Origin: a virus | Virus record (IMG/VR): IMGVR_UViG_3300018080_000003 | Location: 32,001-96,000 of that record | Strand: one strand, 5' to 3' | DNA: 64,000 nt | Shown here: one piece after another, positions 1,107 through 18,805 of the stretch | Position numbering within the stretch: position 1 is the stretch's first letter | How the letters are laid out: each line of letters opens with the position of its first letter | Position numbers and translations under genes: made by a program | Notes under the pieces: model-generated | What the model was told of the DNA's origin: nothing | Seen by the model: only the letters and a program-made list of their open reading frames with translations | Databases searched by the model: none

Positions 1107-3356
1107 GTGTCCCGCACGAAAGCTCTGACCCGACCCATCACTCGCAAGCAAGCGAGGTCGTACAACCGAACCGTCCCAAACGGTCGCGGTGTGACGGCAC
1201 TTGCTGAGGTGAACGGGAAAGGCGCTTACAAGCGGCGCTACCAGGCCACTCGCCGGCTCCTGAAGAACGGCAGCGGGAGTGACCAGATGTACACAGCGGC
1301 CCAAAAGCGCGCGATGAAGAAGATGAGCCCGGCTCAGCGCGCATCTTTCAAGAAGATGCTCAAGCGCGCGCCCTCGATCGCAACGCTTGAAAAGAAGCGG
1401 AAGGCCTCGGCGAAGCGCAAGGCCGCTCCCCAGCGGATGAAGTCGAACGGTCGACGAAAGTCGACGACCACGCGCTCAAAGATGACGCCGAACCGGCGCA
1501 AGACGCGCGCTGGGTCCACGGCTCCTCGGAAGTCGGATTTTATCGAGGCGCAGATTTCTCGTGGCCGCACCAAGAAGCAGGCCGAGTCTTCCTGGAAGCT
1601 CGCGCATGGCCGCCACTACAGCAAGACGGCCGCGAAGGGTGCTGCCAAGCGCAAGCGCCGTCGCGTCTACGGCAAGGGCAAGTACAAGGCTGTGAAGGCC
1701 CGGATTGGTCCCAAGAGCCGTTTCACCTACAAATACACCTCCAAGAGCCGGCGCAGCGGCAAGGAGTCCCTGCGGGACATTCCGGACCATGCGCTCCTCG
1801 GGTTCAAGACCCGCAAGGCCTATCTGGAGGTCGTCCGCGACATCGGCGAGTGGGGCCTCCCCCCCAAGCGCGCTCGGCGGGCGAAGGCGCTGGAGAAGCG
1901 CCTTGATCGTCTCGCAGCTCGAAGAGAGCGTGCTGCCGAGAGAGCCGCGAAGCGCATCAGGGCGGGTCGCGGCATGTTCACACCGAACGATGGGAGCAGC
2001 GCGCTCTCGTACGAGGAGTTCGAAGACATGAAGATGCGTCGAAACATCAGAAAGAAGTCGACCAAGAAGAAGGCGACTCGCAAGAAGACGACCGCGAAGC
2101 GGACTTCGTCGGCGAAGCGTCGTGCCGCGGCCAAGAAGGCTGCCGCGACCCGGAAGCGCAACGCGGCGAAGCGGAGCGCTGCGGCCAAGAAGGCGGCTCG
2201 GACCCGGAAGCGGAAGGCGACTGCCAAGAAGCGCACCACCAAGCGCACCACCAAGCGCACGACCAAGCGTCGCACCACGCGTCGCGTACGTCGGACTCGT
2301 GTCGGGCCGCGCAGCGCAGCGATGCGTCGTCGCAAGGGCAGCGTGAGCGTGAGCTACGCGGCCAACAAGCCGAAGCGTCGGAAGAAGGCCGCCAAGAAGC
2401 GCACGTACAAGAAGACCATCACGGTCGGTCGTCGTGGGCACAAGGTGCGCATTCGGTACCGCGCGAACCGCATGTTCAAGCGCAACGAGGGCTTCGTCAG
2501 CCAGCTGACCAAGAGCCTCAAGCTTGGCGCCGTGGTTCTCGGTGGCTACCTCACGCATCGCGTTTTGACTCGCGTCATCGACGACAACGTGACCAGCAAG
2601 ATCGGAGCGCTCAACGAGGGCACCCTCGGCAAGTACCGCACCCTCATCTCGGGCGCGGCGACTGCGGCCATCGGTATCCCCGCGGCCATCGCTGGTTCGC
2701 GCGCGGCCAAGATGCCCGATATCGCGGCTCCCATCGCAGGCGGCATGGCTGCCAGCCTCATTCAGTCGCTCATCGTGACCGTCCTGGGCGAGACCGCTCC
2801 TGAGTACGCCGGCTACTTCAGCAACTACGCGAACGCGGGTGGCACGGCCACTCCCGGCGGGGTTCTCGGCAGCTACTACACCCTTCCCCAGGCGGGCATG
2901 GGTTCGTACTACGAGTTCCAGCCCCATCAGATCATGCCGGCTGCCGGCATGGGCCAGCTCACCCAGGCTGCTGCGGGCATGGGCCAGCTCACTCAGGCTG
3001 CTGCGGGCATGGGCTCGCCGATGCTCACCCAGGCTGCTGCGGGCATGGGACAAGCGATGCTGACCCAGGCCGCTGCGGGCACCGGTGAGTACGTGGCTTA
3101 CGCCGCGAACGGCATTGGCGAGTACGAGGAGACTTCGGTTTCCGCGTCTCCCATGATGGTGGACGAGGGCATTCACCCGAACCTGCACAGCGCGGAGCAG
3201 GCTCTCACCGTGGCCGAGGCCGCGGCGGGCGTCGGCGCTGCCGACATCCCCCTCCAGTCGACCGTGGAGCCCACCGTCATCGCTGATCCGATCAGCGATG
3301 CGCCCAGTGGCTCGCGTGCCGGCGTCTTCCAAGGCGGCGACGGCATCTTTGCCTGA
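1107..3356 (+). CDS. Basic histone H1/protamine-like core protein with membrane segments and C-terminal AGMG repeats (possible polyprotein)
   Basis: GGAGGT SD 9 nt before GTG 1107. About 470 aa K/R-rich (AAKKAA, KRTT repeats), then about three hydrophobic helices, then LTQAAAGMG repeats. Confidence 0.8.
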   Translation: MSRTKALTRPITRKQARSYNRTVPNGRGVTALAEVNGKGAYKRRYQATRRLLKNGSGSDQMYTAAQKRAMKKMSPAQRASFKKMLKRAPSIATLEKKRKASAKRKAAPQRMKSNGRRKSTTTRSKMTPNRRKTRAGSTAPRKSDFIEAQISRGRTKKQAESSWKLAHGRHYSKTAAKGAAKRKRRRVYGKGKYKAVKARIGPKSRFTYKYTSKSRRSGKESLRDIPDHALLGFKTRKAYLEVVRDIGEWGLPPKRARRAKALEKRLDRLAARRERAAERAAKRIRAGRGMFTPNDGSSALSYEEFEDMKMRRNIRKKSTKKKATRKKTTAKRTSSAKRRAAAKKAAATRKRNAAKRSAAAKKAARTRKRKATAKKRTTKRTTKRTTKRRTTRRVRRTRVGPRSAAMRRRKGSVSVSYAANKPKRRKKAAKKRTYKKTITVGRRGHKVRIRYRANRMFKRNEGFVSQLTKSLKLGAVVLGGYLTHRVLTRVIDDNVTSKIGALNEGTLGKYRTLISGAATAAIGIPAAIAGSRAAKMPDIAAPIAGGMAASLIQSLIVTVLGETAPEYAGYFSNYANAGGTATPGGVLGSYYTLPQAGMGSYYEFQPHQIMPAAGMGQLTQAAAGMGQLTQAAAGMGSPMLTQAAAGMGQAMLTQAAAGTGEYVAYAANGIGEYEETSVSASPMMVDEGIHPNLHSAEQALTVAEAAAGVGAADIPLQSTVEPTVIADPISDAPSGSRAGVFQGGDGIFA
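2945..3080 (+). repeat. Tandem coding repeat LTQAAAG(M/T)G x4
   Basis: ctcacccaggctgctgcgggcatggg unit repeated with variation. Confidence 0.9.
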
Positions 3357-3364
3357 GCCCCACC

Positions 3365-4304: not shown

Positions 4305-4345
4305 AGGGCCGGCTCAGCGCGGGGCTGGGTCGGCCCTTTCTTCTT
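4305..4345 (+). terminator. Intrinsic terminator after putative MCP
   Basis: agggccggctcagc..gctgggtcggccct stem followed by ttcttct. Confidence 0.6.
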
Positions 4346-4407
4346 CCCCGATGAAGATGTCATCCCGAGTTCTGACGCGGCTGCGGGATTGAAAGGAGCG
4401 TCACACA

Positions 4408-5550
4408 ATGGATCCTCGAATCAAAGCAATTCAGCAGCAGGCCTACGAGCAGGGGCTCCTTCAGGGGCAGCAGCAGGCTCGACTGAACGACATGGGTCTT
4501 CAGCAGGCTGCGACCGAGCTTCGCAAGGAGTTCGACGCCAAGATGAACCGGATGGCAGGTGGCCTCCGGAAGCAGATGACGGATCACAGCGCCTCGGTGC
4601 ACGAGAAGCTGGGTCAGATCCAAGCTGCAGCTGACAGCATCTCCATCACCGGCGGCGGAGAGGTCGGCTACAACATGCGGGATGAGGGCAACCTGGTTCG
4701 CCCCGGAAACACCCGCATCGAAGACATTCCAGGTCGGCGTGTTCCCTACGTCTACTCGGTGGACATCTTCATCGAAAACAACACCACGAGCGTTCGTGAG
4801 GCGAGCTTGACGATCAGTCAGGAGGGCCCGTTCGTCGCGGTGAAGCGGATGGCTATCTTTCAGAGTGCCTACGAGTTCCAAGCGACGGACCCAGCTTCGG
4901 GTAACTTGGCTCGCTTCGCAGGCCGTTCGTACGGCCGGTACCGTCCGATTCACTCGGCCTGGGACCTTTTGGATGCGCAAAGCAACGCCGTGACGGACAG
5001 CAACGGTTGGTGGGTTCAGCAGAAGGCTGAAGCGGCTTCAGCTGGCGTGGGCAACCCGGTTGCAACGGCTGCGCTGAGCCTTCCGAGCAACAGCAGCAGC
5101 TTCCGCACGATGGAGTTCGATGGTCGCATCGAGGTCATCAACGCGGGCAGCAGCTACCCGCGCCAGAACAAGGAGATCCCTTCGGCGTTCTGGAGCAGCT
5201 CGATCAACTCTCCTTGGGACCTCGGTGCCCTGGACTTCTTCGAGCGTGGCGAGGTTGTCACCTTCAAGGTGAATCCGACGCACGTGAACAATCCGCCCGC
5301 GGGGAACATCCAGAGCGACTGCGTTCTTCCGAATACCTTCAACGGTGGCGATGGCTGGCCCTTCTTGGAAGGCCAGTACGACCTTCACGAAGGCATCTGC
5401 ACCCCTGAGGGCGCGACCATCGGCGAGTTGGCCGCTCCTCAGCGTGTGAACGTGGTCGCAACGGACCCCATCCAGCGCCTTCCGGATGGTATCCTCACGT
5501 TGGCCTTCGAGGGCTATCGGATCATCCAGCCCATCGGTCCGGCCGCCTGA
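4408..5550 (+). CDS. Putative capsid/penton-like protein with N-terminal coiled coil
   Basis: AAAGGAG SD. Helical Q-rich N-terminus then a beta-rich domain ending LAFEGY. Confidence 0.5.
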   Translation: MDPRIKAIQQQAYEQGLLQGQQQARLNDMGLQQAATELRKEFDAKMNRMAGGLRKQMTDHSASVHEKLGQIQAAADSISITGGGEVGYNMRDEGNLVRPGNTRIEDIPGRRVPYVYSVDIFIENNTTSVREASLTISQEGPFVAVKRMAIFQSAYEFQATDPASGNLARFAGRSYGRYRPIHSAWDLLDAQSNAVTDSNGWWVQQKAEAASAGVGNPVATAALSLPSNSSSFRTMEFDGRIEVINAGSSYPRQNKEIPSAFWSSSINSPWDLGALDFFERGEVVTFKVNPTHVNNPPAGNIQSDCVLPNTFNGGDGWPFLEGQYDLHEGICTPEGATIGELAAPQRVNVVATDPIQRLPDGILTLAFEGYRIIQPIGPAA

Positions 5551-5560
5551 GGAGTGAAGT

Positions 5561-6460
5561 ATGGCGCATCGACGCAGAAAAAAGTCGCCCAATCTCGGTA
5601 CTGTGCCGGGTCAGGTGGTTCCGATCTCAAACGGGGGTCATCAGCTCGTTTCCAAGGGCGCAGCTCAGACCCTTCTGCGTGGTGAGATTGCGCGTGCGCT
5701 GCAGGACAAGGACGACTACCTCAGCACTTTCGAGGGACAGCAGGCTGGTGTTCCAGGAATGGGCTCGGCGCCTGAGGTTCGGCATGAGCCGGCTGGCGGC
5801 GTCTTCACCAAGTTCCTTCACCCGGCTTTCACCATCATGGAGTTCCTCCGGCGCTCGTTGCCGGAGGAGGGCTGGTTCGACCCGGGCGTGAACCCCCGCA
5901 ACCCGATCCAGTTCCAGCTTGGAAGCTTTCAGGTTCCAAGCGGTCTGGCCCTCTGGCTCTACGACTACGAGTACAAAGTTTTCCGTCCTTCTGGGGTAGA
6001 CCCGGGAGACTTCATCCCGGCTGAGGTCGGTCGCTACAGCAATCAGATCGGTTTCGATGTGACGCTGAGCGGTAAGAGAGACGCGCAGCTCAGCATTCAG
6101 CTCGACCCTCAGACGACGAGTCTTTCTCGTCAGGAGTTCGAGCAGCAGGGCAACACGGGTGGTGCAAGCATCTTCGGCAATCCTCCGACGGCATCTAGCG
6201 CGTTTGATCGCGCCACGGCGAACTCTTTCGCTTCGACGGCCGGGCCGGGAACGTCGCTTTTGCCCAACCGTCCGAACAAGTTTGGTCCTCGGGGCGGCCC
6301 GTGGACTCTGGTGGCAGACGAGGGCACGCGTGTCGCGCTCAACGTCGTCATCTTCAACCGTATTCGTTCTCCCTTGGCGGCCGTAGAGGGTCGCTTGGGC
6401 GGGTACTTGATTCAGCGGCAGGTGAGCAGTTCGCTCATCAACCGTGTCCGTCCGCGATGA
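5561..6460 (+). CDS. Putative minor capsid protein (beta-rich)
   Basis: GAGGAG SD. LGSFQVPSG strand pattern, VPGMG motif, terminal RLGGY strand. Confidence 0.5.
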   Translation: MAHRRRKKSPNLGTVPGQVVPISNGGHQLVSKGAAQTLLRGEIARALQDKDDYLSTFEGQQAGVPGMGSAPEVRHEPAGGVFTKFLHPAFTIMEFLRRSLPEEGWFDPGVNPRNPIQFQLGSFQVPSGLALWLYDYEYKVFRPSGVDPGDFIPAEVGRYSNQIGFDVTLSGKRDAQLSIQLDPQTTSLSRQEFEQQGNTGGASIFGNPPTASSAFDRATANSFASTAGPGTSLLPNRPNKFGPRGGPWTLVADEGTRVALNVVIFNRIRSPLAAVEGRLGGYLIQRQVSSSLINRVRPR

Positions 6461-6466
6461 TCAGGA

Positions 6467-6573
6467 GGCGAGAGGCAGAGCAGACAGTCGGAGTAGAAAC
6501 AGTGGGGACGCAACCGCGAATGTGTTGTGCCCTCCAGCCGCTGGGGCTTCGGCTGTCTGCTCTGCTTCTCGCC
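6467..6573 (+). ncRNA. 107-nt rod-shaped RNA hairpin
   Basis: 27-bp closing stem whose three mismatches are all G-U on the + strand. Inner helices also pair. Confidence 0.6.
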
Positions 6574-6584
6574 ATCGTTTGACC

Positions 6585-7253
6585 ATGTACACCTCTGTAG
6601 GACAGCTATCCGGATACGGACCTTGGGGCCGCAATGTTGCGGAGACCGATGAGGTGTACGTGTGGCGCGGTATGTTTGATGGTGCGCAGATCCTCACGCA
6701 GCAGGACCTGCAGGCCATCGTTGCAAGTGTCGGGAAGAACCAGAGTCTGGACTTCGACATCCGCGGCGTAACGGTCAAGCCTCTGGGTGGCAGGAATAAC
6801 AAGGTTGAGGTGGCCTTCACCACGAAGATCCCTCGTATTTACGCGCTCGACCCCGACTTCATCACGGATAGCGCTTCCAGCATTGCTCGGAAGCTAGAAG
6901 CTGACCTCGCGTCTCGCTTCGGACCGTTCCGTGTCGAGGATCCGAAGTTCCTCGCGATCGATGACGATGAGCCGAAGCATCCCGCCTTGGACTTCTGGCT
7001 GTCGCACGCGACCCTCTGGGATCAGCCTCTCATCGGAGATGCGATCCCCACCCAGGCCTGGGAGAAGTTCCAGGGCATGTACAAAGGATCTGTCGATCAG
7101 GGAATTGCCCTGAAGAAGTGGCAGAACCCCTCCGACCCGAGCTCGGGCAATGGAGACACTGAGAAAGACCATACCATCTTGTGGGCCATCGGCGGCGCAG
7201 CCGTGCTGCTTGGAGGCTTCTACTTGATGCGAAAAGGAGCAGCAAAAAGATGA
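6585..7253 (+). CDS. Tail-anchored membrane protein 1
   Basis: Starts MYTSVGQLSGYG. C-terminal TM plus RKGAAKR, no signal peptide. Confidence 0.8.
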   Translation: MYTSVGQLSGYGPWGRNVAETDEVYVWRGMFDGAQILTQQDLQAIVASVGKNQSLDFDIRGVTVKPLGGRNNKVEVAFTTKIPRIYALDPDFITDSASSIARKLEADLASRFGPFRVEDPKFLAIDDDEPKHPALDFWLSHATLWDQPLIGDAIPTQAWEKFQGMYKGSVDQGIALKKWQNPSDPSSGNGDTEKDHTILWAIGGAAVLLGGFYLMRKGAAKR

Positions 7254-7843
7254 GTTACGGTGGAGTTGGTTCGTACTACACCCTTCCTGGCATGGGTTCG
7301 TACTACACCCTTCCTGGCATGTCCGGGTTTGGCTCGACGGCCGACACCTTCGATGCCGCGGCGGTGTGGGCAGACGTGCAGCTTGGCGGCTCGTGCTACG
7401 GCGCGCAGGGCGTCATCAAGGGCTCGAACGTCGGCGCGTGCAACGCGGCTGGTGGTCGTGCGGCTCGCGCGATCCAAGCGGCGCTCAACGAGATGGGCTA
7501 CGGCCCGCTGGCCGTGACGGGCAAGTGGGACGGCGCGGTCTCGGGCAAGTGGAAGCGTTTCCTCTCGGATCACGGCCTTCAGCCGGGACCGGGCCTCGGT
7601 GTCTCCGAGCAGGGCCTTCTCCTGATGGAGAAGCTCCTGAAGGAAGGCAAGACCCCCGGGCCCAACAAGCCCATCGTCTACGACAAGCAGGGCGACCAGT
7701 ACATCCCGCGTGATGCCGGACCCGGCACCGCGACCGCGGGCATGGGCGCTGGTGGTCTACTCCTCGGCGTTCTCGTCATCGGTGGACTCGGCTACGCGGC
7801 CTACCAGAGCGGCAAGAAGCGGAAGGGTCGACGCGTCCGATGA
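7250..7843 (+). CDS. Tail-anchored membrane protein 2, peptidoglycan-binding-like domain
   Basis: GSYYTLPGM x2 then MSGFG. IQAALNEMGYGPLAVTG resembles PG_binding_1. TM plus KKRKGRR. Confidence 0.75.
   Translation: MSYGGVGSYYTLPGMGSYYTLPGMSGFGSTADTFDAAAVWADVQLGGSCYGAQGVIKGSNVGACNAAGGRAARAIQAALNEMGYGPLAVTGKWDGAVSGKWKRFLSDHGLQPGPGLGVSEQGLLLMEKLLKEGKTPGPNKPIVYDKQGDQYIPRDAGPGTATAGMGAGGLLLGVLVIGGLGYAAYQSGKKRKGRRVR
7268..7321 (+). repeat. 27-bp perfect tandem duplication
   Basis: ggttcgtactacacccttcctggcatg x2. Related sequence at about 2870-2910. Confidence 0.9.
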
Positions 7844-8088
7844 TCGATCCCTCCCAGGTCGACTACGCAGCGGTAGCCAACGTCGCGCAGAACGGGTCGC
7901 CGTTGCTGCTCTCGGCGCTCGGTCGTCTGTACGGCATCGGCCCCCAGGAGCGTCATGCGCTCGGGGCTGACGGCACCGGCGTGCCGACCTGGACGTGGGC
8001 TGCTTTGGCCTTTGTCACTGGGTACGTGGTCGGCGTCAGGGTCTACAAGGCCTACCCTGGCTACGTGCCAAAGATCATCAGCGGGTGA
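7840..8088 (+). CDS. Small membrane protein 3
   Basis: 82 aa, LYGIG motif, C-proximal TM. Confidence 0.75.
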   Translation: MIDPSQVDYAAVANVAQNGSPLLLSALGRLYGIGPQERHALGADGTGVPTWTWAALAFVTGYVVGVRVYKAYPGYVPKIISG

Positions 8089-8092
8089 ATCT

Positions 8093-8341
8093 ATGCACTT
8101 TGGAATCGACACGCCGGCTTCCGGCACATCTGAGATCGCAAGACAAGGACTTCGAGATGGGATTTACACCCTCGGAGAGACCATGTCCGGGCTTGGCCTG
8201 GAGTACCAGGAGTCTGGAGGCAGGTACATGCTTGCGACGACCAAACACTTCGAGGGTGAAAAGACGAAGTCTTTGGTGATTGGCGTTGGAGCTGGTGCTG
8301 CAGCAGCTCTGCTCATGGGTTTCTTTATCTTCCGGAAGTAG
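8093..8341 (+). CDS. Tail-anchored membrane protein 4
   Basis: MSGLG motif. TM plus RK. Confidence 0.75.
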   Translation: MHFGIDTPASGTSEIARQGLRDGIYTLGETMSGLGLEYQESGGRYMLATTKHFEGEKTKSLVIGVGAGAAAALLMGFFIFRK

Positions 8342-8348
8342 GCTCGTC

Positions 8349-8903
8349 ATGTACGCAGGACTCGGCAACATCCAGGTACCGACGCCCATCCCGGGCAACA
8401 TCAACCGCGTCGCGACGGTGCGGGCGACTGGCTACAACTACTGCGGCGACCTTCGCGGGTTGCAGCAGATGTTGGCTGAGCTGGGCTGGTACCAGGGCGC
8501 GGTCGACAACCAGTTCGGTCCTGCGACTCGAAAGGCGGCGGAGGCTGCCGCTCGTGAGTACGGTGTTCCTTTCACCAAGGGTGGCACCATCAACAACGAT
8601 TTCTGCCAGGCGGTGATGGATGCTTGGAAAGCGCAGAACGCTCCCAATCCCTCCCCCGCTCCGGCACCCAAGCGTCCGTCCTCTTCTTCTCCAGCAGGCC
8701 CGGCCCCCTCACCATCGTCCAAGCCTGCCGCGTCTCCTTCCGGCAAGCCGGCGTCACCCCCTCGTCAGGGCGGTGGTGAGGGGATCACCGGCTGGTGGAG
8801 TAGTCAAGAGAAGAGCACACAGATCGCCATCGGCCTCGGAGCTGTGGGGATTGTCGGACTGGGGGTCTACCTTCTAGCCACCCCCAAGAGACGTCGAGTT
8901 TGA
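8349..8903 (+). CDS. Tail-anchored protein 5 with peptidoglycan-binding domain
   Basis: Starts MYAGLG. LQQMLAELGWYQGAVDNQFGPATRKA fits PG_binding_1. P/S-rich linker, TM plus KRRR. Confidence 0.8.
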   Translation: MYAGLGNIQVPTPIPGNINRVATVRATGYNYCGDLRGLQQMLAELGWYQGAVDNQFGPATRKAAEAAAREYGVPFTKGGTINNDFCQAVMDAWKAQNAPNPSPAPAPKRPSSSSPAGPAPSPSSKPAASPSGKPASPPRQGGGEGITGWWSSQEKSTQIAIGLGAVGIVGLGVYLLATPKRRRV

Positions 8904-8930
8904 TGCCCACCGAGGCATAGGAGAAAAGAA

Positions 8931-9551
8931 ATGTACAGCGGAGTTCCTGCATACACCGAGATTTCGCACTTCCGTGCGCCCTACAAGAACGCTGTGATCT
9001 CTGGCTTCGGCCAGGAGGCCGGCGGGCCGGACCCGGCGGCTGCCTTCCTCATGGAAGACGAGCGCGGATATCGGTTCCTCAAGCCTGAGATGCACGTCTT
9101 GTTCATGAACATGATGGCGGAGGCTTACGGCGCTGAGACCATCACCGGCGACCGCATCAAGATCAGTGCGCTCACCCCTGAGCAGGCTGCTGTGGCCGCG
9201 ATCCCGCGCCCCGCGCCTTGGATCAAGGCGGCGGTGGAGTCTGGCAAGGTCGTCTTCGCGAACCAGGCGCTGGTCTTCGCGGTCCTTGGTGGCACGCAGA
9301 TCCCCAGCGGTGTCGACGAGCTTGGTTCGGCCAAGGTCGGGTCCGAAGCCGCCAAGACTTCCGCCAAGGACTACGGCCTCATCATCGTGGCCGGCGACCC
9401 CGACAAGGACCTCGGTGGGGGGAGCAAGAAAGACAGTGGCGAAGGCTTCCTCGCGAACCTCGGTCCGGCCGGAACGGCAGCCGTCGCGGCTGCGGTGATT
9501 GGCGTGGGGTACGTCGCCCTCAAGGGCGCCAAGAAGCGCAATAAGAAGTGA
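8931..9551 (+). CDS. Tail-anchored membrane protein 6
   Basis: AGGAG SD, ISGFG motif, TM plus KKRNKK. Confidence 0.8.
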   Translation: MYSGVPAYTEISHFRAPYKNAVISGFGQEAGGPDPAAAFLMEDERGYRFLKPEMHVLFMNMMAEAYGAETITGDRIKISALTPEQAAVAAIPRPAPWIKAAVESGKVVFANQALVFAVLGGTQIPSGVDELGSAKVGSEAAKTSAKDYGLIIVAGDPDKDLGGGSKKDSGEGFLANLGPAGTAAVAAAVIGVGYVALKGAKKRNKK

Positions 9552-9555
9552 GCTG

Positions 9556-10236
9556 ATGAACGCTCTTCTCCGCCTCGTTGATCCTTCCTTCGCTGCGCAG
9601 CAGCAGCGGCTGAAGCAGACCTCCAGCTCGGCCCATTCCGGTCCGCGCGGAGGTTTGCTGATGGCTGATGGCTCGTCTGGTCCGGCGATGATGTTCGACC
9701 CATCCCGCACTTCGGGCGCTTCTATGTCTCAGGGAGGCGGCGGAGCCACGATGCAGCAGCTCGATCAGCCTGGCCCTGGTGGTGCTCCCCCGAGTGACCT
9801 TGGGTTGCAGGCGACGAAGGTCGCGGGCGGAAAGAGCTACTGTGGGATCACGCCGAACGGCTTGCTCCTCTTCAACTCGGTCTACCCGAGTCAGATCTCC
9901 GGGCTTGGCCCCGAGATGGCGACCGAGGTCAACGGAAAGAAGGTCACGGCACGAGAGATGGTCCCAGTGGGTGGTGCCCCTTCAATCTCTGTGGAGAACT
10001 ACGTCCGCGGTGAGCAGGAGAAGGGCAACGGCATCATCATGACCAACACGGCCATGATCGCGACGAAGAACCTCAACGTCGCTGTTGCCCTCGCGCCTTC
10101 GCCTTGCGGCCAGAACGTGGTCTTGATGGATCCGCCTGGTGGCTGGTCGACGATGAGCCCTCTGGTGTATGCAGGCATCGGAGTCGGCGTCGTCGCGGTT
10201 CTCGGCGGCGCGTACTACCTGACGAAGAAGAAGTGA
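9556..10236 (+). CDS. Tail-anchored membrane protein 7
   Basis: ISGLG motif, TM plus KKK. Confidence 0.75.
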   Translation: MNALLRLVDPSFAAQQQRLKQTSSSAHSGPRGGLLMADGSSGPAMMFDPSRTSGASMSQGGGGATMQQLDQPGPGGAPPSDLGLQATKVAGGKSYCGITPNGLLLFNSVYPSQISGLGPEMATEVNGKKVTAREMVPVGGAPSISVENYVRGEQEKGNGIIMTNTAMIATKNLNVAVALAPSPCGQNVVLMDPPGGWSTMSPLVYAGIGVGVVAVLGGAYYLTKKK

Positions 10237-10883
10237 TGAAGCATCAGAGCTACGATCAGGCATGCCATGGCTACGGCGTCTACGCCAGCTTTGGCTCTGC
10301 TGCGGCTATCCCTTCGGCCGAAGAGGTGTTCCGCAACGTCGACAAGTACATCTTGAACGACGATGGCATCCAGGTGCTTCAGCCCCAGTTGCGCAAGGCG
10401 GCGATTGATGGCTTGGGCAAGACGACGCTCGGCATCATGGGCTCTGAGGACGGCCCGGTCATCACGGCCACGGCCACGGCGGACCTACTGGGCTTGAACG
10501 TGGGTGGCGGTTGGGCCGCGGACTACTTGGCCATGGGCTACGCGATCATGGGTGACAAGACCAGCGTGGGCAAAGGCTTGACGGGTCGCATCATGATGGC
10601 CAAGGCGCCGGGCTACATCAAGGACAACGCTGGTGTCGGTGGCAATTACGTCGTGATCGACGCGCCTCCTCAACTCTTGTTGGACGCCCAGAAGCTGGCG
10701 GCTGGCATCCCGCCGGGGATCCCTGGAAGTGAGATCCCTCCGGGTGGTGTCCTCCCTGAAGACAAGCAGAAGCAGCCTGAGTTCAAGGCTGCGGGTGCGG
10801 CGCCCACCTGGCTCGTGCCTGCAGTCGTTGGCGTGGGTCTGTTGACGCTGGGCGCTTTCGCGGTCAGCGCGAGAAAGAAGTGA
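10236..10883 (+). CDS. Tail-anchored membrane protein 8
   Basis: TGATG coupling. HGYG, ASFG and IDGLG motifs, TM plus RKK. Confidence 0.8.
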   Translation: MKHQSYDQACHGYGVYASFGSAAAIPSAEEVFRNVDKYILNDDGIQVLQPQLRKAAIDGLGKTTLGIMGSEDGPVITATATADLLGLNVGGGWAADYLAMGYAIMGDKTSVGKGLTGRIMMAKAPGYIKDNAGVGGNYVVIDAPPQLLLDAQKLAAGIPPGIPGSEIPPGGVLPEDKQKQPEFKAAGAAPTWLVPAVVGVGLLTLGAFAVSARKK

Positions 10884-11680
10884 CGACAATGCGCGGTTTC
10901 GGACAAGCTCCCGTTTTCATCGACCCCCCTGTCTACAACGACGGAGGGCTCAAGCGCGTGACGGCTGCGGCCAAGCCTGCGGCGATGTGGTCGCTGAACG
11001 CGACGACCGTCTTGGACCCGAGCCTTGGCTTCACCCAGAGGCCGTACAGCAACTTCAAGGACAGCTTTGAGCTGAGCGTCCCGAGCGGCCCTGGCACCAA
11101 CTGGCTGGATGCGAAGGTCAAGGAGGGATACGTGGTGATGCTGGTCCCGCCGGATCCGACGAACCTTGGCCCGAATCTCACGTTCATCATCACGAAGGAC
11201 CCGGTCGCGGTAAAGACCGCGTCTGCGTACATCAACCCGGTTGGTGCGGTGATCCTCGACGGCCCCCGTTCGGTCATCGAGGCGGCGAAGGGGCAGGCCC
11301 CCTCCGTCCCAGGTATCCCCGGCTCTGGCGGTACGTGCCCTCCCGGCAAGGTGGGTATTCCTCCTTTCTGTCTTCCTGTGCCTTCGGGCGGAGGAGGGGG
11401 TGGTCAGCAGCCCACGCCTCCTTTCGTTCCTCCGCTGCCGGGTGGTGGCGGCCAGAGCCCCGCGCCTACCCCGACGCCTTCTCCGACGGACCCGAGCCAG
11501 ACGCCGACCCCGGTCGTGCCGCCTCCGGCGCCCACACCGACCCCTGCACCCGCTCCCGCTCCTCAGAAGCCGGCAACGGCTGCGATGGGCGGCTCGGGAT
11601 GGGTCCTCCCTGTCTTGGTGGGGATCGGAGCCATCTCCCTCATCTCCCTGAGTGCTGCGAGCCGGAAGAAGCGTCGCTGA
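10880..11680 (+). CDS. Tail-anchored membrane protein 9, Pro/Thr-rich stalk
   Basis: MRGFG near N-terminus, PTPTP linker, TM plus RKKRR. Confidence 0.8.
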   Translation: MTTMRGFGQAPVFIDPPVYNDGGLKRVTAAAKPAAMWSLNATTVLDPSLGFTQRPYSNFKDSFELSVPSGPGTNWLDAKVKEGYVVMLVPPDPTNLGPNLTFIITKDPVAVKTASAYINPVGAVILDGPRSVIEAAKGQAPSVPGIPGSGGTCPPGKVGIPPFCLPVPSGGGGGGQQPTPPFVPPLPGGGGQSPAPTPTPSPTDPSQTPTPVVPPPAPTPTPAPAPAPQKPATAAMGGSGWVLPVLVGIGAISLISLSAASRKKRR

Positions 11681-11707
11681 AATCACTCCTTCTGCTAGGA
11701 TTGCCAG

Positions 11708-12286
11708 ATGGAGATCGATTTTCGACAGATGCTCTTTGGGGTGGGCAGCACCGCTGTTCAGAGCCTCCGTTCGGGCAATCCGACCACCGACAGCTACGCA
11801 CAGGCGGCGGCTCGTCTTCTCCAGCATGCCGGCAAGTGGTCTGCGGTCAGCCAGTCGGGGGTACGTTGTACGACGCGTCAGCGCACACCGATCGGAACGA
11901 CTGAGATCTGTCGAGCCCCTGGGATTGGAGCCTGTGTCGTCTGTGACCAGCCGACTTGTTTCAACCACTCGATGATCTCTCCCCATGATGGAACGCAGAT
12001 CTGTTTTGGGTGCGTGGGGCGTTCTCAGCAGCAGTACCGTGCGGGTGGTCCGGCAGAAGCTCCTGGGGTCAGCGACGCTGAGAAGAAGGCGGATTGCCTC
12101 ATCGTACTTGGCCTCGCGGGAGAGGTGACTTGGGCTCAGGTCCAGGCGGTCTACAAGGCTATCGCCAAAGAGCAGCACCCCGACAAGTTCCCTCCCGCTC
12201 AACGGAAGGAGCAGGAGAAGAAATTCAAGAAGATCAACCAGGCCTATGAGTGGCTCAAGGCCCACTACGAGAAAGAAGCAGCATGA
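11708..12286 (+). CDS. Zn-finger plus C-terminal J-domain protein
   Basis: CxxC-x4-CxxH..CxxC, then VLGL..YKAIAKEQHPDK..FKKINQAYEWL with intact HPD. Confidence 0.9.
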   Translation: MEIDFRQMLFGVGSTAVQSLRSGNPTTDSYAQAAARLLQHAGKWSAVSQSGVRCTTRQRTPIGTTEICRAPGIGACVVCDQPTCFNHSMISPHDGTQICFGCVGRSQQQYRAGGPAEAPGVSDAEKKADCLIVLGLAGEVTWAQVQAVYKAIAKEQHPDKFPPAQRKEQEKKFKKINQAYEWLKAHYEKEAA

Positions 12287-12579
12287 TGATTCGTGGATTT
12301 GGAGCCTTCGGGCAAGAGACCCCTGTCGTTCCTGGCATGCCTGGTGGCATCACCTCCATGGATGAACTTGGCCAGCAGGTCACCTCCGGCCTCGTCGTCG
12401 AGCTTGGGAACAAGCAAGAGGGCAACTACAAGTGCTACGAGCCGACCGAGAAGCAGGCGGCCGAGGGCAAGAAGGCCATGTGCGTGGGCTCTAAGCAGTT
12501 CTACACCATGAGCCACCTCGGAGCGCTTGCCATCGGTGGAGCTGTCGGCTTCGCCATCTGCAAGATGATGAAGAAGTGA
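12283..12579 (+). CDS. Tail-anchored membrane protein 10
   Basis: Starts MMIRGFGAFGQ. TM plus KMMKK. Confidence 0.8.
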   Translation: MMIRGFGAFGQETPVVPGMPGGITSMDELGQQVTSGLVVELGNKQEGNYKCYEPTEKQAAEGKKAMCVGSKQFYTMSHLGALAIGGAVGFAICKMMKK

Positions 12580-12583
12580 TCTG

Positions 12584-12982
12584 ATGTATACCTCTCTTGG
12601 ACAGAACTTGGACTACGGCTGGGTGTTCCTCTACGGACCTCCCGCCAAGGGTGCGGCTGATCAGTTCCTTGGTTGGGTCTACACCTCCACGCCCGGCGCT
12701 CAGGTGATCGCGAAGCGAGCCTCGGGCGCTATCCCGGGGTTCCTCGACTTCAGTGCGACCACAGGTCTAGGCTGGCAGCAGCTTCAAGAGATGATCAGCC
12801 AGAAGACGGGTGAGTTCAGTAGTCAGCTGACGCCTCAGTTCTTGAGCTACTACTATCCCGCGACCCCTCAGGTCGCTCAGACGGTGCGTACCATCATGCG
12901 TGGTATCATCACGACGTCCGACCGAGAAGGTTGGATCCGCCAGGTTCGAGTGTTCGACCCGAACCGCAACCAGATCCGGTGA
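12584..12982 (+). CDS. Putative virion protein (same N-terminus as 6585 protein, no TM)
   Basis: Starts MYTSLGQ. Confidence 0.7.
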   Translation: MYTSLGQNLDYGWVFLYGPPAKGAADQFLGWVYTSTPGAQVIAKRASGAIPGFLDFSATTGLGWQQLQEMISQKTGEFSSQLTPQFLSYYYPATPQVAQTVRTIMRGIITTSDREGWIRQVRVFDPNRNQIR

Positions 12983-12987
12983 CAGAC

Positions 12988-13344
12988 ATGTTCGGCTCCT
13001 ACTACGAGGCAGATTACTACCGCAACCCGGTCCCCTACCGGCAGAGTGACATCGGCGAGCCGGTGCCTGGTTGGGGTGTAAACCCGTTGGTGGCTGGTCC
13101 TGCTCGTCTCGGGGTGGGAGCGCCTCCAATGCTGGACACTTCGCTCATGCGGGCTTCGGCCGCGCAGATGCAGACGCCCATTCTCCAGATGCAGACGCAG
13201 CGTGGTGGCACAACGACTACGGAGGGTGGAGTCACGCCCGGAGCGGGCGCCCCGATGGCGCTCCCGTGGTGGACGTACCCTGCTGCTGCTGCGGTCGCGC
13301 TCGGCCTCGTGGGCTTCTACGGGACGAAGAAGGGTTGGTTCTGA
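12988..13344 (+). CDS. Tail-anchored membrane protein 11
   Basis: Starts MFGSYY, RLGVG motif, TM plus KKGWF. Confidence 0.75.
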   Translation: MFGSYYEADYYRNPVPYRQSDIGEPVPGWGVNPLVAGPARLGVGAPPMLDTSLMRASAAQMQTPILQMQTQRGGTTTTEGGVTPGAGAPMALPWWTYPAAAAVALGLVGFYGTKKGWF

Positions 13345-13345
13345 G

Positions 13346-14368
13346 ATGAGCTACGCAGCTGTTGGAAATGTTGGCTTCAACGTCCAGGTGGACATCCCTC
13401 TGTTGACGGGTGGCCCTGCGGCCGAGGACACTGGTGCAACGAAGCCGAATTGTCCTGGCAAGCTCATGTCGGCGAGTGGTAGCGGGCCTCCGGCCCGATG
13501 CGACGGTGGCATCCATGCGGTGAACTGCAAGGAGGTCTGTTGCAAGGTCGAGTCTTGGACGAACAACACGTACAAGGACATCGGCGGTGAGATCTCACTG
13601 CAGCGTTTGAACGAGTCTCGCATCGAGCACTTGTTCGCAGCGATCTTCGCCGGTGGTGGTCTTCAGAACATGGCCTACGACCTCGGCGTGAAGCCGCCCT
13701 CCCAGGCGGACATGGCGCGCTACAACGAGGCGTTCACCGACTACTTCCGCATCATGGACAAGAACCGCTGGGTTCTTGCGAAGGGCCCTCGTCGCGGCTG
13801 CGACGGTGGAGGCGTTTATGATGTGTGGCGGACGCGTCCGGGCAGGTCGACTTGGACTGTGCAGCGCGTGACGACGTTGGAGAAGCTTGTCGGAAGCCTC
13901 GGCGGCCCTGGTCGTGCGAAGGCCATCGATCAGGTGGGTGTGCCCTACAACCAGTTCCTCCCCCCGGCTCACACGGCGAAGATGGACGAGCTGATCAATC
14001 TCACGATGACGGTGCCCGGTAGCCGGATGGGCGATCGGGTAGGCATGATGCCCACGCTCGCAGCGGCCTTCCGGCCGCAAAACGGCCTGCTCATGCCCTA
14101 CGGTTGGTTTGCGACGTTCTTGCAGGCGCTTCGTCCGCCTCGGGTGATGATCTCAACCGCACTTGCGACGAAGTTCGGACCCCAGCAACAGCGCCTTGTC
14201 GATCTGATGAATCAGCCTGCGACGCAGCAGGCGGCCCGGGACACGACGCAGCCGGCGGCTCCGCCTCCGACAATGACCCAGCAAGAGGGTGGCATTCCCA
14301 CTGCAGCGCTTGTCGCTGGTGGGCTCTTGGTGGCGGGTGGCGTTGCGTTCATTGCTCTGAGAAAGTGA
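13346..14368 (+). CDS. Tail-anchored membrane protein 12, Cys-rich N-terminal part
   Basis: Starts MSYAAVG, six Cys, TM plus RK. Confidence 0.75.
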   Translation: MSYAAVGNVGFNVQVDIPLLTGGPAAEDTGATKPNCPGKLMSASGSGPPARCDGGIHAVNCKEVCCKVESWTNNTYKDIGGEISLQRLNESRIEHLFAAIFAGGGLQNMAYDLGVKPPSQADMARYNEAFTDYFRIMDKNRWVLAKGPRRGCDGGGVYDVWRTRPGRSTWTVQRVTTLEKLVGSLGGPGRAKAIDQVGVPYNQFLPPAHTAKMDELINLTMTVPGSRMGDRVGMMPTLAAAFRPQNGLLMPYGWFATFLQALRPPRVMISTALATKFGPQQQRLVDLMNQPATQQAARDTTQPAAPPPTMTQQEGGIPTAALVAGGLLVAGGVAFIALRK

Positions 14369-14375
14369 TCTGGCC

Positions 14376-15749
14376 ATGTACGGCCTTGGTGTTCCCCCCA
14401 GTGAGACACTGGAAGACCTGAGAGAGCTTCAGGACTTCAAGTTCCCGTCGCCGCCGGAGAAGATGCAGGGCGTGATTGATGGGATCGATGCGGTCGTGCC
14501 CATCAAGAACATCAACTTGGATGTGGGCGGCATCATCAACCCTCCTGTTGCGAATCTGGTCACGGGTGTTCAGACGACCATCGAGAGCGCCACGGGGATG
14601 GGGTTCGGTCAGCTCGTCTCGCTGGCGGACAACGTCTACGGGCTCGCAAACGCGGCGAACACGGGGCAGTTCTTCATGGCGCTGAATCAGCTCATGAACG
14701 GAGCGCTGGACCTGGCGGCAGAGGCGAACGCGCAGGTCGCAGCGGCTGTGGAGTCGTTCCAGTCCATTCCTTACTTCGGGATGATCATGGATGCGATGCT
14801 GGGCTTCATCAGCGATGTGTTGAAGTCTCAGGCGCGGTACGCGGGAGCTACGGCGAAGTGCCAGCAGCGTGTGGACCAGAAGATGAACAACTTCTGCAGC
14901 ACGCTCTCTCGGCAGTCAACGCCTCGTCCGACGGGTCCGAAGGGGCAGACGCCTGCGGACATGTTCCGTCCCTTGGCGGTGAAGTACCAGCAGGGGAGCC
15001 GGAAGTACCCGGCGAACGTCTCTACGATGTACCTGCTCTTGTGCGGGGAGGAGACGCAGGGCTTTGGCTTCCCGCGCGGCCACAAGTTCCCTTCGGGGGT
15101 TCGGATTCAGATCCCTCAGGACACGCAGCGTCGAATGTGGCGTGTGATCCAAGGGCTGATGAAGCAGGCGAAGAACCCGTCGATCACAGCTGCTTTCTCT
15201 GAGCTGAGTGACGGGGATGACGGCTACAGCTTGATGCCCATCTTGCAGGACGTCGTCTACAACGAGTGGATGGCGGGCCGCCTGACGCGGAACACGCTGA
15301 ACTACCTCTCCGACTACGCGTTGAACTGGACCTACCACTACGAGGAGTGTCCAGATCTGACGAGGGGAGAGATCGGAGCCGGCGGCAAGCCTGCGGGTGG
15401 CGGAAGCTGCACTTCGCGTATCAACCTTGCCGAGGCTTTCGAGAAGTCGATCCAGACGTACAAGAATCAGCTTCGAGCGTATTACTGGGACCCGGTTCGA
15501 AACACGTGGAAGAATCCTCGCGGGGTCAAGTACAACATCAGCGGTGGTATTGCGAAGAACGCAAAGGCCAAGGGGCTCCTGACGCTGACTCCGAACGCCA
15601 TCAAGCAGTTGGAGCAGACGCAGAAGTCTCGCGGTGGCGTCGCCCCGCTTGCCCACCTGTCGGATGATCAGCGCAAGGCAGCGATCGCGACTACGGCTGT
15701 CGTGCTAGGAGGAGGAAGCTTCTTCTTGGCGCGGCGTCTTGCGAAGTGA
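14376..15749 (+). CDS. Tail-anchored membrane protein 13
   Basis: Starts MYGLG, 457 aa, TM plus RRLAK. Confidence 0.8.
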   Translation: MYGLGVPPSETLEDLRELQDFKFPSPPEKMQGVIDGIDAVVPIKNINLDVGGIINPPVANLVTGVQTTIESATGMGFGQLVSLADNVYGLANAANTGQFFMALNQLMNGALDLAAEANAQVAAAVESFQSIPYFGMIMDAMLGFISDVLKSQARYAGATAKCQQRVDQKMNNFCSTLSRQSTPRPTGPKGQTPADMFRPLAVKYQQGSRKYPANVSTMYLLLCGEETQGFGFPRGHKFPSGVRIQIPQDTQRRMWRVIQGLMKQAKNPSITAAFSELSDGDDGYSLMPILQDVVYNEWMAGRLTRNTLNYLSDYALNWTYHYEECPDLTRGEIGAGGKPAGGGSCTSRINLAEAFEKSIQTYKNQLRAYYWDPVRNTWKNPRGVKYNISGGIAKNAKAKGLLTLTPNAIKQLEQTQKSRGGVAPLAHLSDDQRKAAIATTAVVLGGGSFFLARRLAK

Positions 15750-15758: not shown

Positions 15759-15965
15759 TCAGTCTTCTTCCTCTTCATGTACGACGATGTACTCGCAGTT
15801 CTTCTCTTTCCCTCCGACGATGCCGAGGAAGACGGAGACCGAGCGTTCGCACTTGCGCACCTTCAGGCCCTCAGGGGTCTGGACGGCGTGTGTGATGTAG
15901 GGCCCGACGGTCGTCGTGCAGCCAGTGACAGATAGCAGAATGATGGTGATGATGATGCTCTTCAT
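15759..15965 (-). CDS. Small lipoprotein
   Basis: MKSIIITIILLSVTG-C signal II/lipobox and two further Cys. Confidence 0.75.
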   Translation of the reverse strand: MKSIIITIILLSVTGCTTTVGPYITHAVQTPEGLKVRKCERSVSVFLGIVGGKEKNCEYIVVHEEEED

Positions 15966-15974: not shown

Positions 15975-16358
15975 ATGTTGACGACGGTTGCTTGTGTTCT
16001 GGCCAGAAGGGCCGACGGAAGTGTGTTGGCGGTTTCACGCCCAGACCCACCCCTTCGCTTCGGGTTGCCTGGTGGCGAGGTTGAGCCTGGAGAGTCTTGG
16101 GAGCAGGCAGCTCGTCGAGAGCTGTTCGAGGAGACGGGCATGCATGTCGCGGGTCCGCTGGTGAAGCTCTACGACACCATCACCGAGACGGGCGCTCATG
16201 TCATCACCTTTGAGGCGCCTCGCGTCTTCGGTGATATGCGGAGCAGCCCTGAGGGTTTGGCAGCTTGGGTGCCGGCTGTGACGCTGATTGCTGGCGACAA
16301 GGCGGCCTACCCTGAGCACACGCGTCGGGTCTTCACCATTGCTGGGGTTCGCGTCTAG
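15975..16358 (+). CDS. NUDIX hydrolase
   Basis: Nudix box GGEVEPGESWEQAARRELFEETG. Confidence 0.95.
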   Translation: MLTTVACVLARRADGSVLAVSRPDPPLRFGLPGGEVEPGESWEQAARRELFEETGMHVAGPLVKLYDTITETGAHVITFEAPRVFGDMRSSPEGLAAWVPAVTLIAGDKAAYPEHTRRVFTIAGVRV

Positions 16359-17251: not shown

Positions 17252-17519
17252 TGAAGACGCCCTTCCGGGCTCCGCGTCGTTCCAGGTTGGGAACGACACT
17301 TACATCGTCTGGGTTCCTTCTGTCACCGCGCTGCGGTCGATACGCCCGACGAGCTTCAATCCTCAAGGGGAGACTGCAATCTATTCTGGTCCGACTGAGA
17401 TGATGATCTTGCCCCTCCCGATAGGGGAGGTGGCCGCGAAGATCGAAAAAGAGCGAAAGGGGTACTTGGAATGGCGAATGAAGCTGAAGAAGCGGGTGAA
17501 GGCTGGGCAAAGCAGCTAG
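17244..17519 (+). CDS. Hypothetical protein
   Basis: Fills gap in operon. Confidence 0.5.
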   Translation: MSSEDALPGSASFQVGNDTYIVWVPSVTALRSIRPTSFNPQGETAIYSGPTEMMILPLPIGEVAAKIEKERKGYLEWRMKLKKRVKAGQSS

Positions 17520-18805
17520 CTGGCTACCATGGCGCGTACAACGCGTCAGATCAAGATCGAGCCTTTCACCCGAGCACTCGTGCAGCTGAGCACGAGAAGG
17601 GTGTTGCTTTCATCTGTCCGTGGGAGGATCCCTACTCGGGGTTCGCGGAGCATTCTCGCCGCCTCGCTCGTGCTCTCAACGACGCGGGGCTTCCCACGCA
17701 CATGCGCTCGCTCGATGCGAGCATGCAGATGCACACCCAGTTCGAGCTGGGCGGCAAGGACAAAGTCGACCTGCGTGAGCAGTACCACGACCTGCTCGAC
17801 AAGAGCATCAAACATCTGATGGTCAGCGTCTACCATCTCGTCCCCGACGATGCTGAGCTTCAGGTTCTGACGACACACCGTCATCTGACGCCGGAGCAGC
17901 TGGAGTGGGCGAACAGCTACAAGATCATCTCGACGGTCTGGGAGCGGGATCGGATCAGCCCGGCTGCGACTCAGGCGTTGAACCGCGTGGGACAGGTCTG
18001 GACGGCGACGTCGCAGCACGCAGAAATGCTGGCGGAGTGCGGTGTGAACTCCGACAAGATCAAAGTCGTCCCGCTCCCCTATTCGAAGATCGATCCCATC
18101 TTCGACTTGCGAGGCCGCAAGCGCATGAAGGGCGTCCCTCGTTTCTACCATATAGGAAAGTGGGAGCCGCGGAAGGCCCAGCACGAGATGCTGGGTTGTT
18201 TCCTCCGCGCCTTCGAGCCTGGTGAAGCGAAGTTTTACCTGAAGACGAGCGAGACGTCGCCGGACTTCGGAGACTACCCGCGCAGCCCTGATGCGTCGAT
18301 CGAGCGCTGGCTGACGAAGGAGGGCCTCTCCGGCAAGTGGTCGTTGGATCAGGTCAACCAGAACATCCACGTCATCAAGAAACGGATCAGCCCAGAACAG
18401 ATCTTCCAGCTGCATCGGATGGGGGACATCTACTTGTCGCTCAGCCGTGGTGAAGGCTGGGACATGCCCGCCTACGACGCGAAGCTTGCGGGCAATCTCC
18501 TGGTCTGGACGGCAAGCGGTGGCCCGCAGGAGTACGCAGGACAGGACAGCTTCTTCGTGGACTCCCTCGGCACTCAGCCGGCTCATCCTTTCTACAAGTG
18601 GGACGACGCAGAGTACCTCAGCTGGGACTACGTTCACGCGGTCAAACAGATGCAGAAGGCGGCAGGAGAGGTCAACTCGACGCTGAAGCCGCCTGACCTT
18701 CCACCTCTCTCTGACTTCGATCGCTTCAGCCCAGAGTGCGTTGGTCAGCTGATGAAGTCGTTCATCGAAGAGCTGGTCGAGCAGAATGAGGAGCGGTGGT
18801 CATGA
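17471..18805 (+). CDS. GT-B (GT4-like) glycosyltransferase
   Basis: FYHIGKWEPRK and LSRGEGWDMPAYDA motifs. Confidence 0.9.
   Translation: MANEAEEAGEGWAKQLAGYHGAYNASDQDRAFHPSTRAAEHEKGVAFICPWEDPYSGFAEHSRRLARALNDAGLPTHMRSLDASMQMHTQFELGGKDKVDLREQYHDLLDKSIKHLMVSVYHLVPDDAELQVLTTHRHLTPEQLEWANSYKIISTVWERDRISPAATQALNRVGQVWTATSQHAEMLAECGVNSDKIKVVPLPYSKIDPIFDLRGRKRMKGVPRFYHIGKWEPRKAQHEMLGCFLRAFEPGEAKFYLKTSETSPDFGDYPRSPDASIERWLTKEGLSGKWSLDQVNQNIHVIKKRISPEQIFQLHRMGDIYLSLSRGEGWDMPAYDAKLAGNLLVWTASGGPQEYAGQDSFFVDSLGTQPAHPFYKWDDAEYLSWDYVHAVKQMQKAAGEVNSTLKPPDLPPLSDFDRFSPECVGQLMKSFIEELVEQNEERWS

Follow-up and report, generated by a model that had tools for sequence, protein, structure and literature searches.

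The window analysed here is a stretch of 64,000 nucleotides of viral DNA, bases 32001-96000 of the 143,727-base contig IMGVR_UViG_3300018080_000003. At positions 6585-15749 it holds an array of 15 co-directional genes, several of them with 4-base overlaps, of which 13 encode unrelated proteins held to a common plan: an N-terminal domain without a signal peptide and a single transmembrane (TM) helix close to the C-terminus. A short N-terminal tag and a glycine motif recur in these tail-anchored proteins, and the motif is found again in a capsid-like protein, in a very basic core protein and in a candidate cysteine enzyme encoded elsewhere in the genome. Together these may form a code for sorting and processing the proteins of a particle membrane.

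Architecture of the array

A protein was counted as tail-anchored when it had one TM helix no more than about 30-35 residues from the C-terminus, no signal peptide and no other TM helix, the helices and signal peptides being called from hydropathy scans and by reading of the sequences. An earlier note on this DNA had described 13 such proteins, each with a basic tail. The single C-terminal helix and the lack of an N-terminal hydrophobic segment stand in all 13, while the tail of lysine and arginine is present in most of them. The gene starts given in that note were reproduced by codon-model calls (6585, 7250, 7840, 8093, 8349, 8931, 9556, 10236, 10880/10889, 12283, 12988, 13346 and 14376) and match independent gene calls in related viruses. 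The ectodomains are indeed unrelated: compared with one another, the array proteins gave no match at E<1e-3, which also rules out paralogy among them. The array is therefore as described, but it is not the full set, since the whole genome encodes about 25 tail-anchored proteins in two genome arms. A second block lies at genome positions 1158-9763 (minus strand), and two further such proteins are scattered. Several small tail-anchored proteins of the second arm (L001:6152-7909, minus strand) are rich in cysteine, with repeated CPDPIMF(K/R)D...GKCWCPPPYLD...GKCVN units that may be disulfide or metal sites.

Eight related loci, with 47-85% identity in the capsid protein, were fetched for comparison. 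The gene order is common to all eight: basic core protein, a protein of 250 amino acids (aa), capsid protein, a capsid-like protein of 290 aa, and then the tail-anchored array. Over nine arrays the C-terminal helix is present in 95 of 120 proteins.

The array also contains a gene for a J-domain protein (11708..12286, plus strand; 192 aa), which has a Cys/His cluster and the HPD motif and lacks a TM helix. The J domain is matched by PF00226 at E=8.6e-10 (39 bits, cut-off 27.8), and the gene lies in the middle of the array in six of the eight fetched relatives and in one further contig. Insertion of the tail-anchored protein TssL is YidC-dependent and modulated by DnaK in E. coli (PMC3426401). 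By analogy with TssL, the conserved place of the gene suggests that the viral J-domain protein may recruit host DnaK for the tail-anchored clients.

The N-terminal tag and the glycine motif

All of the (M/L/I)xGxG instances reported in the earlier note are present. The motif is best written as hydrophobic-x-G-hydrophobic-G: counted over 90 first sites, 65 have a hydrophobic residue at -2 from the first glycine. A Met-(Ser/Thr)-Tyr start often stands ahead of the motif. In this genome (M/L/I)xGxG falls within the first 60 residues of nine of the 25 tail-anchored proteins, compared with 10 of 197 other proteins (Fisher 3e-5). Shuffles that preserve the composition of each protein gave a mean of 2.9 against the nine observed (P=0.0005). 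The strongest form of the tag, M-(S/T)-Y-x-x-hydrophobic-G at the extreme N-terminus, occurs in seven of the 25 and in none of the 197 (1e-7); examples are MYTSVG, MYAGLG, MYTSLG (twice), MYSAMG, MSYAAVG and MSYGGVG. Identical tags are written with different codons, for example TCT or AGT for serine and CTT or TTG for leucine, so selection acts on the tag peptide and not on the DNA. Conservation of the tag at the nucleotide level is ruled out by the same codon differences.

The tag patterns were refined after the data had been inspected, and a test independent of the window was made with 92 array proteins from seven relatives, leaving out the window itself and its 85% relative. Among these proteins (M/L/I)xGxG was observed 29 times against 8.3 expected, (M/L/I)xG[LIVMFY]G was found in the first 60 residues of 27 of the 92 (2.2 in shuffles), and tyrosine stood at position 2 or 3 in 41 against 6.3 expected. 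None of 1000 shuffles attained any of the observed counts. The motif is thus enriched over a glycine-rich background, a check that the earlier note had proposed, both here and in the seven relatives when measured by composition-matched shuffles. Of 50 sites, 26 come in the first tenth of the protein's length. Across the nine arrays tyrosine occupies position 2 or 3 in 53 of 120 proteins, preceded by serine in 25, methionine in 19 and threonine in four, and in 24 of the 53 a glycine follows four residues downstream.

The fate of tag and site can be followed along the array, where all genes are on the plus strand. Protein 1 (6585..7253, 222 aa) starts MYTSVGQLSGYG and has its TM helix at residues 197-215, followed by RKGAAKR; in its orthologues, found in seven relatives, the N-terminal tag and the first glycine of the site are conserved. 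Protein 2 (7250..7843, 197 aa) starts MSYGGVG and continues with GSYY repeats, LPGMG and MSGFG, with G[FY]G[AS] retained in nine of nine orthologues. Protein 3 (7840..8088, 82 aa) carries GRLYGIGPxER at residue 30, a site of the LYGIG type being kept in eight of nine orthologues. Protein 4 (8093..8341, 82 aa) has MSGLG at residue 31 and no orthologue among the fetched relatives. The MYAGLG start of protein 5 (8349..8903, 184 aa), which matches the peptidoglycan-binding family PF01471 at 25.6 bits (cut-off 23), is conserved in its orthologues. Protein 6 (8931..9551, 206 aa) is best conserved in its leader, MYSGVPAYTEISHFRAPYKNAVISGFG. Among the sites followed in the orthologue alignments, SGFG is retained in seven of nine orthologues.

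The next two proteins qualify the earlier list of sites: in protein 7 (9556..10236, 226 aa) ISGLG is at residue 114, and in protein 8 (10236..10883, 215 aa) IDGLG is at residue 57 and unconserved, whereas GYGVY at residue 12 is conserved. Protein 9 (10880..11680) has 266 aa when read from GTG, with an ATG at 10889, and starts MTTMRGFGQ; protein 10 (12283..12579, 98 aa) starts MMIRGFGAFG. It is followed by a tag-bearing protein without a TM helix (12584..12982, 132 aa) that starts MYTSLGQNLDYG; in the 85% relative its first 10 residues are missing and the start is MYGWYF. Protein 11 (12988..13344, 118 aa) starts MFGSYY and has RLGVG at residue 40, where R[LV]G[VI]G is retained in five of six orthologues. 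Protein 12 (13346..14368, 340 aa) starts MSYAAVGNVG and protein 13 (14376..15749, 457 aa) starts MYGLG. Conservation in homologues therefore extends to most orthologue groups at 47-65% capsid identity, with the loss of IDGLG.

Glycine sites in the capsid-like and core proteins

The glycine motif is not limited to membrane proteins but extends to other products of the structural module, as would be expected of a site recognised or cleaved throughout the particle. The capsid-like protein (5561..6460, plus strand, 299 aa) begins with a leader of 25-100 aa across the relatives, which ends in the conserved sequence GQ(Q/E)AG(V/P)PG(M/L/F)G; the body that comes next is well conserved. Judged from the alignment, this boundary of leader, site and body looks like that of a propeptide. 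The core protein (1107..3356, plus strand, 749 aa) is extremely basic over 470 residues and then has two hydrophobic segments. Its C-terminal part carries a train of sites, QAGMG, four AAGMG, ANGIG and AAGVG, of which 5-10 copies are retained in eight of eight relatives. A module GSYY(E/T)(F/L)xPHQ is common to the core protein and the start of protein 2. Because the motif occurs in capsid-associated, core and membrane proteins as well as in the enzyme described below, and because variable leaders end at it, it resembles a maturation site.

A candidate cysteine enzyme

The earlier note had likened the motif to the sites of the adenovirus protease, adenain. The link to an adenain-like protease did not hold, as neither PF00770 (Peptidase_C5) nor PF02902 (Peptidase_C48) had a match at E<=1 in a six-frame search of the complete genome. 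The same note had suggested looking for transglutaminase-like proteases beyond the window as well, and reading of the other structural arm yielded a candidate. This protein of 199 aa, with the pattern DCD...H...D and no TM helix, is encoded at genome positions 9856-10455 (minus strand), 28 kb outside the array. Both here and in a 148-kb relative the second tail-anchored array opens with this gene. In its product the conserved domain is preceded by a leader that varies and ends G(F/M/L)LG.

The enzyme has 403 homologues. In three contigs matched by length its identity is 62-72%, compared with 47-65% for the capsid protein, and it is thus more conserved than the capsid protein. Residues D126, C127, H159 and D176 are invariant in 25 homologues. 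The genome gave no direct match to PF01841 (Transglut_core) or to PF06035 (BTLCP; searched at E<=10). A profile search of 1.8 billion representatives returned 1064 relatives. Among 57 distant homologues (profile E<=1e-10) D126, C127 and H159 never vary and D176 hardly ever does; 44 of the 57 match PF01841, the best at 1.3e-16, and two match PF06035.

An AlphaFold model of the enzyme has a mean confidence (pLDDT) of 87, with the first 30 residues at about 60 and the rest mostly above 90. Foldseek matched the model with probability 1.0 to 3kd4, 3isr, PNGase, LapG (4fgq, 4fgo and 4u65) and transglutaminase-like putative proteases. VIA-align gave Z 12.4 to 3kd4 (root-mean-square deviation 3.0 Å over 142 residues) and, for alignments of about 155 residues, Z 11-12 to the factor XIII and transglutaminase 2 cores. 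The predicted fold is transglutaminase/LapG-like with a Cys-His-Asp set of residues.

The gene after the enzyme (L001:8820-9308, minus strand; L015:10652-11152 in a relative) encodes a protein with no TM helix in which the motif stands at the C-terminal end and not at the start. The protein ends ...AGFGMSPDGLG here and ...EGYGIGPDGLGRFG in the L015 relative. A second protease candidate is a protein of 174 aa with a zinc-protease-like HEFGH, at L005:10550-11074 (minus strand), which corresponds to genome positions 135550-136074.

The virus and the genes around the array

The final 123 bases of the source contig repeat the first 123, the GC content is 0.60, and the genome is rated complete, with direct terminal repeats according to IMG/VR and 100% by CheckV. 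It encodes replication genes of phage type, namely a DnaG primase, two helicases, a PD-(D/E)XK exonuclease, an integrase and TnpB. The TnpB/OrfB_IS605 gene (L004:11285-12454, minus strand) and a gene for a 1222-aa protein with a phage-integrase domain (L004:13788-17456, minus strand) lie in the non-structural part of the genome. The genome also encodes an M15 peptidase that has a peptidoglycan-binding domain, and this enzyme together with the peptidoglycan-binding domains of array proteins argues for a bacterial host. A host search of species genomes returned only two binned contigs, from Gemmatimonadota and Methanomicrobiales metagenome-assembled genomes, which are too short for trust.

Neither the large terminase (PF03237, PF03354), nor the portal (PF04860), nor the HK97 capsid protein (PF05065) was found in a six-frame search of the complete genome, which divergent forms may escape, and a Walker-A scan gave no packaging ATPase candidate among the structural genes. 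The large structural genes had no match in Pfam or PHROGs; the same applies to the capsid-like protein, the core protein and most of the array proteins. The putative major capsid protein (4408..5550, plus strand, 380 aa) serves as a marker for the virus group; metagenomes contain 625 homologues of it, on contigs that reach 177 kb. Its structural model is poor (pLDDT 59), and the best matches of the model, at E about 0.01, are to capsid proteins of jelly-roll type, from iridovirus among others, and give no more than a weak hint. For the capsid protein and the enzyme, profile searches against PDB sequences gave chance-level rows only and tblastn against GenBank phages gave no match; an ESM Atlas search returned unnamed viral clusters only. 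The virus is probably a large, tailless, lipid-containing bacterial virus.

Directly after the array, a small gene on the opposite strand (15759-15965, minus strand) starts MKSIIITIILLSVTGC, read as a lipoprotein signal peptide with a lipobox, and is the sole signal-peptide-like start near the array. It is followed by a gene for a Nudix-box protein (GLPGGEVEPGESWEQAARRELFEETG; 15975-16358, plus strand), and the relative L013 has a NUDIX gene at the same relative position. A glycosyltransferase cluster lies 3' of the array (17471-24849, plus strand) and includes a fusion of 1103 aa with two GT4-like domains and a SAM methyltransferase; the proteins of the particle may be glycosylated. Four consecutive proteins of 964, 506, 481 and 323 aa are then encoded at 24875-31777 (plus strand). 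They have in common the N-terminal pattern G-F-K-G-x-G-x-x-R-x-x-E-F-P-x-G, diverge thereafter, and resemble interchangeable spikes or fibres built on one kind of anchor. Further away, the early region has a gene for a DUF6745 protein of 358 aa (E=1.4e-35; 45691-46767, minus strand), and at 61868-64573 (plus strand) there are a MoxR-type AAA+ ATPase (PF20030, E=9e-46), a gene of 124 aa and a von Willebrand A protein, the last stretch extending 573 bases beyond the window.

A proposed sorting and processing code for particle-membrane proteins

The array very probably is the main block of particle-membrane proteins. Three lines point this way: the architecture of the proteins, the position of their genes beside the capsid genes and the link to SSIP-1, a cultured phage described as membrane-containing (PMC6356626). 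We further propose that the tag and glycine site would constitute a sorting and processing code for these proteins, with the tag cut by the transglutaminase-fold enzyme, and we put the probability of this reading at about 0.45.

The particle location, the topology, the recognition of the tag by the enzyme, cleavage and the role of DnaK are inferred along the following lines. The tail-anchored proteins would be made in the cytoplasm, and each would be inserted by its C-terminal helix and basic tail. As there is no signal peptide, the N-terminal domains would stay on the cytoplasmic face of the membrane, which would become capsid-facing once a membrane patch is enclosed by the capsid. The peptidoglycan-binding domains would then lie outside when the membrane is exposed at entry. 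The tag, Met-(Ser/Thr)-Tyr plus hydrophobic-x-Gly-hydrophobic-Gly, would mark proteins for the assembling particle, and its glycine site would be recognised, and most likely cut, by the viral Cys-His-Asp enzyme. The viral J-domain protein would probably recruit host DnaK to handle the anchors before insertion. More speculatively, and with the balance somewhat against it, the whole widespread group of large bacterial viruses, in which tailed-phage genes are not recognisable, might mature its particles in the style of adenovirus and African swine fever virus (ASFV) with an unrelated protease of the transglutaminase fold. The sites would then be in capsid, core and some 25 tail-anchored proteins, the Met-Ser-Tyr leader would be the loading signal and the J-protein would borrow DnaK.

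Several points weigh against cleavage at the glycine site, or against parts of the scheme around it. Two of the sites first listed, ISGLG (9556) and IDGLG (10236), are not N-terminal or not conserved. Some tags would yield a propeptide of only 5-6 residues, and the high conservation of the protein 6 'leader' is odd for a propeptide that is to be discarded. The sites in the core protein are spaced 10-13 residues apart in 5-10 copies, an arrangement that multivalent binding fits at least equally well. The enzyme has no direct match in Pfam, and the fold predicted for it is shared by proteases, transglutaminases, amidases and inactive proteins, so that the chemistry is not fixed by the fold. The particle membrane itself is argued from gene content and from analogy with SSIP-1.

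Alternative explanations

The alternative that survives best is that the motif serves in sorting or docking and is never cleaved. The tags and glycine sites would attach to one shared receptor (the core protein, a scaffold or the underside of the capsid lattice, for instance) and so gather the tail-anchored proteins in the membrane patch that becomes the particle membrane, while the enzyme would be tagged only for packaging and would have another job. This accounts well for the 5-10 copies of AAG(M/Y/F)G in the core protein of all relatives, for the module shared by the core protein and protein 2, and for the leader of protein 6 being its most conserved part. The MSY and MY starts would both give a mature X-Tyr end under the usual rules of methionine removal, which hints that a free end is recognised. 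On the other side, the succession of variable leader, conserved site and conserved body in the capsid-like protein and in the enzyme resembles a propeptide junction. Docking also leaves unexplained why a cysteine enzyme should be the most conserved gene of the module. We regard it as rather unlikely, although it is the strongest competitor of the processing code.

It is improbable that the enzyme and the motif have nothing to do with each other. The enzyme would then be a particle-borne hydrolase used at entry, against the cell wall or otherwise, and the N-termini rich in tyrosine and glycine would be structural, acting for example as flexible arms or as interfacial anchors in the membrane, and retained for their physical properties. 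Several tagged proteins do have peptidoglycan-binding domains, one distant homologue of the enzyme matches a pseudomurein isopeptidase family, and the homologue gp34 of SSIP-1 is annotated as structural and is tail-anchored. However, host-facing lysins are not usually better conserved than the capsid protein, as this enzyme is, the M15 peptidase with its peptidoglycan-binding domain is already present in the genome, and the motif is both positionally specific and carried by the enzyme itself.

A slightly less probable proposal is that the enzyme is a true transglutaminase, which would cross-link tagged proteins through Gln-Lys isopeptide bonds and harden the interface of membrane, capsid and core, as may be compared with Tgl in the spore coats of Bacillus. 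The VIA-align scores to factor XIII and transglutaminase 2 make the fold match as good as that to proteases. Glutamine follows immediately after the site in 11 of 90 first sites, the AAGMGQLTQ repeats are dense in it, and the lysine-rich tails and core protein could be acceptors. Yet glutamine is not a constant part of the motif, the leaders of variable length are left without explanation, and the small single-domain bacterial proteins of known activity that match the model are proteases (LapG, and CPR-C4, which is titled a protease in the PDB). Finally, we reject the view that the motif is an accident of glycine-rich composition or of miscalled starts: the tail-anchored proteins are richer in glycine (11.9% versus 8.1%) and the patterns were refined after inspection, but composition-matched shuffles speak against it here and in the seven relatives (0/1000), and the gene starts agree with independent calls in the relatives.

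Implications and comparison with known systems

According to the model of one review, the jelly-roll lineage obtained its maturation protease in eukaryotes (PMC6260650). If the processing code is correct, prokaryotic viruses too have evolved a particle-wide code for maturation by a protease, using another enzyme fold but almost the same site, and both the site and the strategy would be cases of convergent evolution. How membrane-containing phages choose the proteins of their particle membrane is poorly understood, and the code, if correct, would offer an entry point to this question too. The patterns offer a simple rule by which particle proteins could be annotated from sequence in a large group of metagenomic viruses that is still uncharacterised, and the compact set of tag, anchor and enzyme could possibly be used to load proteins into lipid vesicles. 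No description of the tag, the anchor code or the enzyme in phages was found in the literature.

SSIP-1 provides a cultured point of comparison. Its gp34, annotated in GenBank as a structural protein, is a homologue of the enzyme (profile E=4e-10) with the cysteine and histidine aligned, and its late module is likewise rich in tail-anchored proteins. Three of these have G(L/M)G in the first 45 residues, compared with one of 42 other proteins. The differences are that the SSIP-1 genome is 44 kb rather than 144 kb, that its capsid protein has no detectable similarity to the one described here, that gp34 is tail-anchored whereas the present enzyme lacks a TM helix, and that its proteins do not have the Met-Ser-Tyr start.

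In the GlyGly-CTERM/rhombosortase and PEP-CTERM/exosortase systems, too, many unrelated proteins end in a glycine-rich helix and a basic cluster. Those proteins have a signal peptide and a signature motif directly before the helix. The array proteins have neither, and share no conserved residues ahead of the helix, their motif being N-terminal and not beside the TM helix, and the earlier note was right to set these systems aside.

The capsid targeting sequence of phage T4 is similar in being a short N-terminal leader common to unrelated proteins, which targets them to the particle and ends in a site for the gp21 protease. The T4 leader ends in (L/I)-x-E, and the prohead protease gp21 is a serine enzyme of a tailed phage. 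Here, in contrast, the motif has glycine at its end and is borne by tail-anchored membrane proteins. LapG, of the BTLCP family (PF06035, MEROPS C93), is like the candidate a small single-domain Cys-His-Asp enzyme of the same fold. It cuts LapA near the N-terminus at a site of small residues, an Ala-Ala bond, in the periplasm. The enzyme described here is viral, is proposed to act on glycine sites and has no direct PF06035 match.

The closest parallel in the site itself is with adenain (C5) and the Ulp1-like proteases of ASFV and poxviruses, which favour a hydrophobic residue at P4 and glycine at P2 and P1' and whose consensus is likewise spread over capsid-associated, core and membrane proteins. 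Adenain sites read (M/I/L)XGX-G or (M/I/L)XGG-X, and at the sequence level the motif here resembles the first of these. Like adenain, the candidate is a cysteine enzyme. It differs in its fold, which is predicted to be transglutaminase/LapG-like with no C5 or C48 protein in the genome, in the placing of the sites, which are mostly in the first 10-30 residues, and in the bacterial host. The enzyme is not adenain, and the resemblance of its putative glycine site to the adenain consensus would be convergent.

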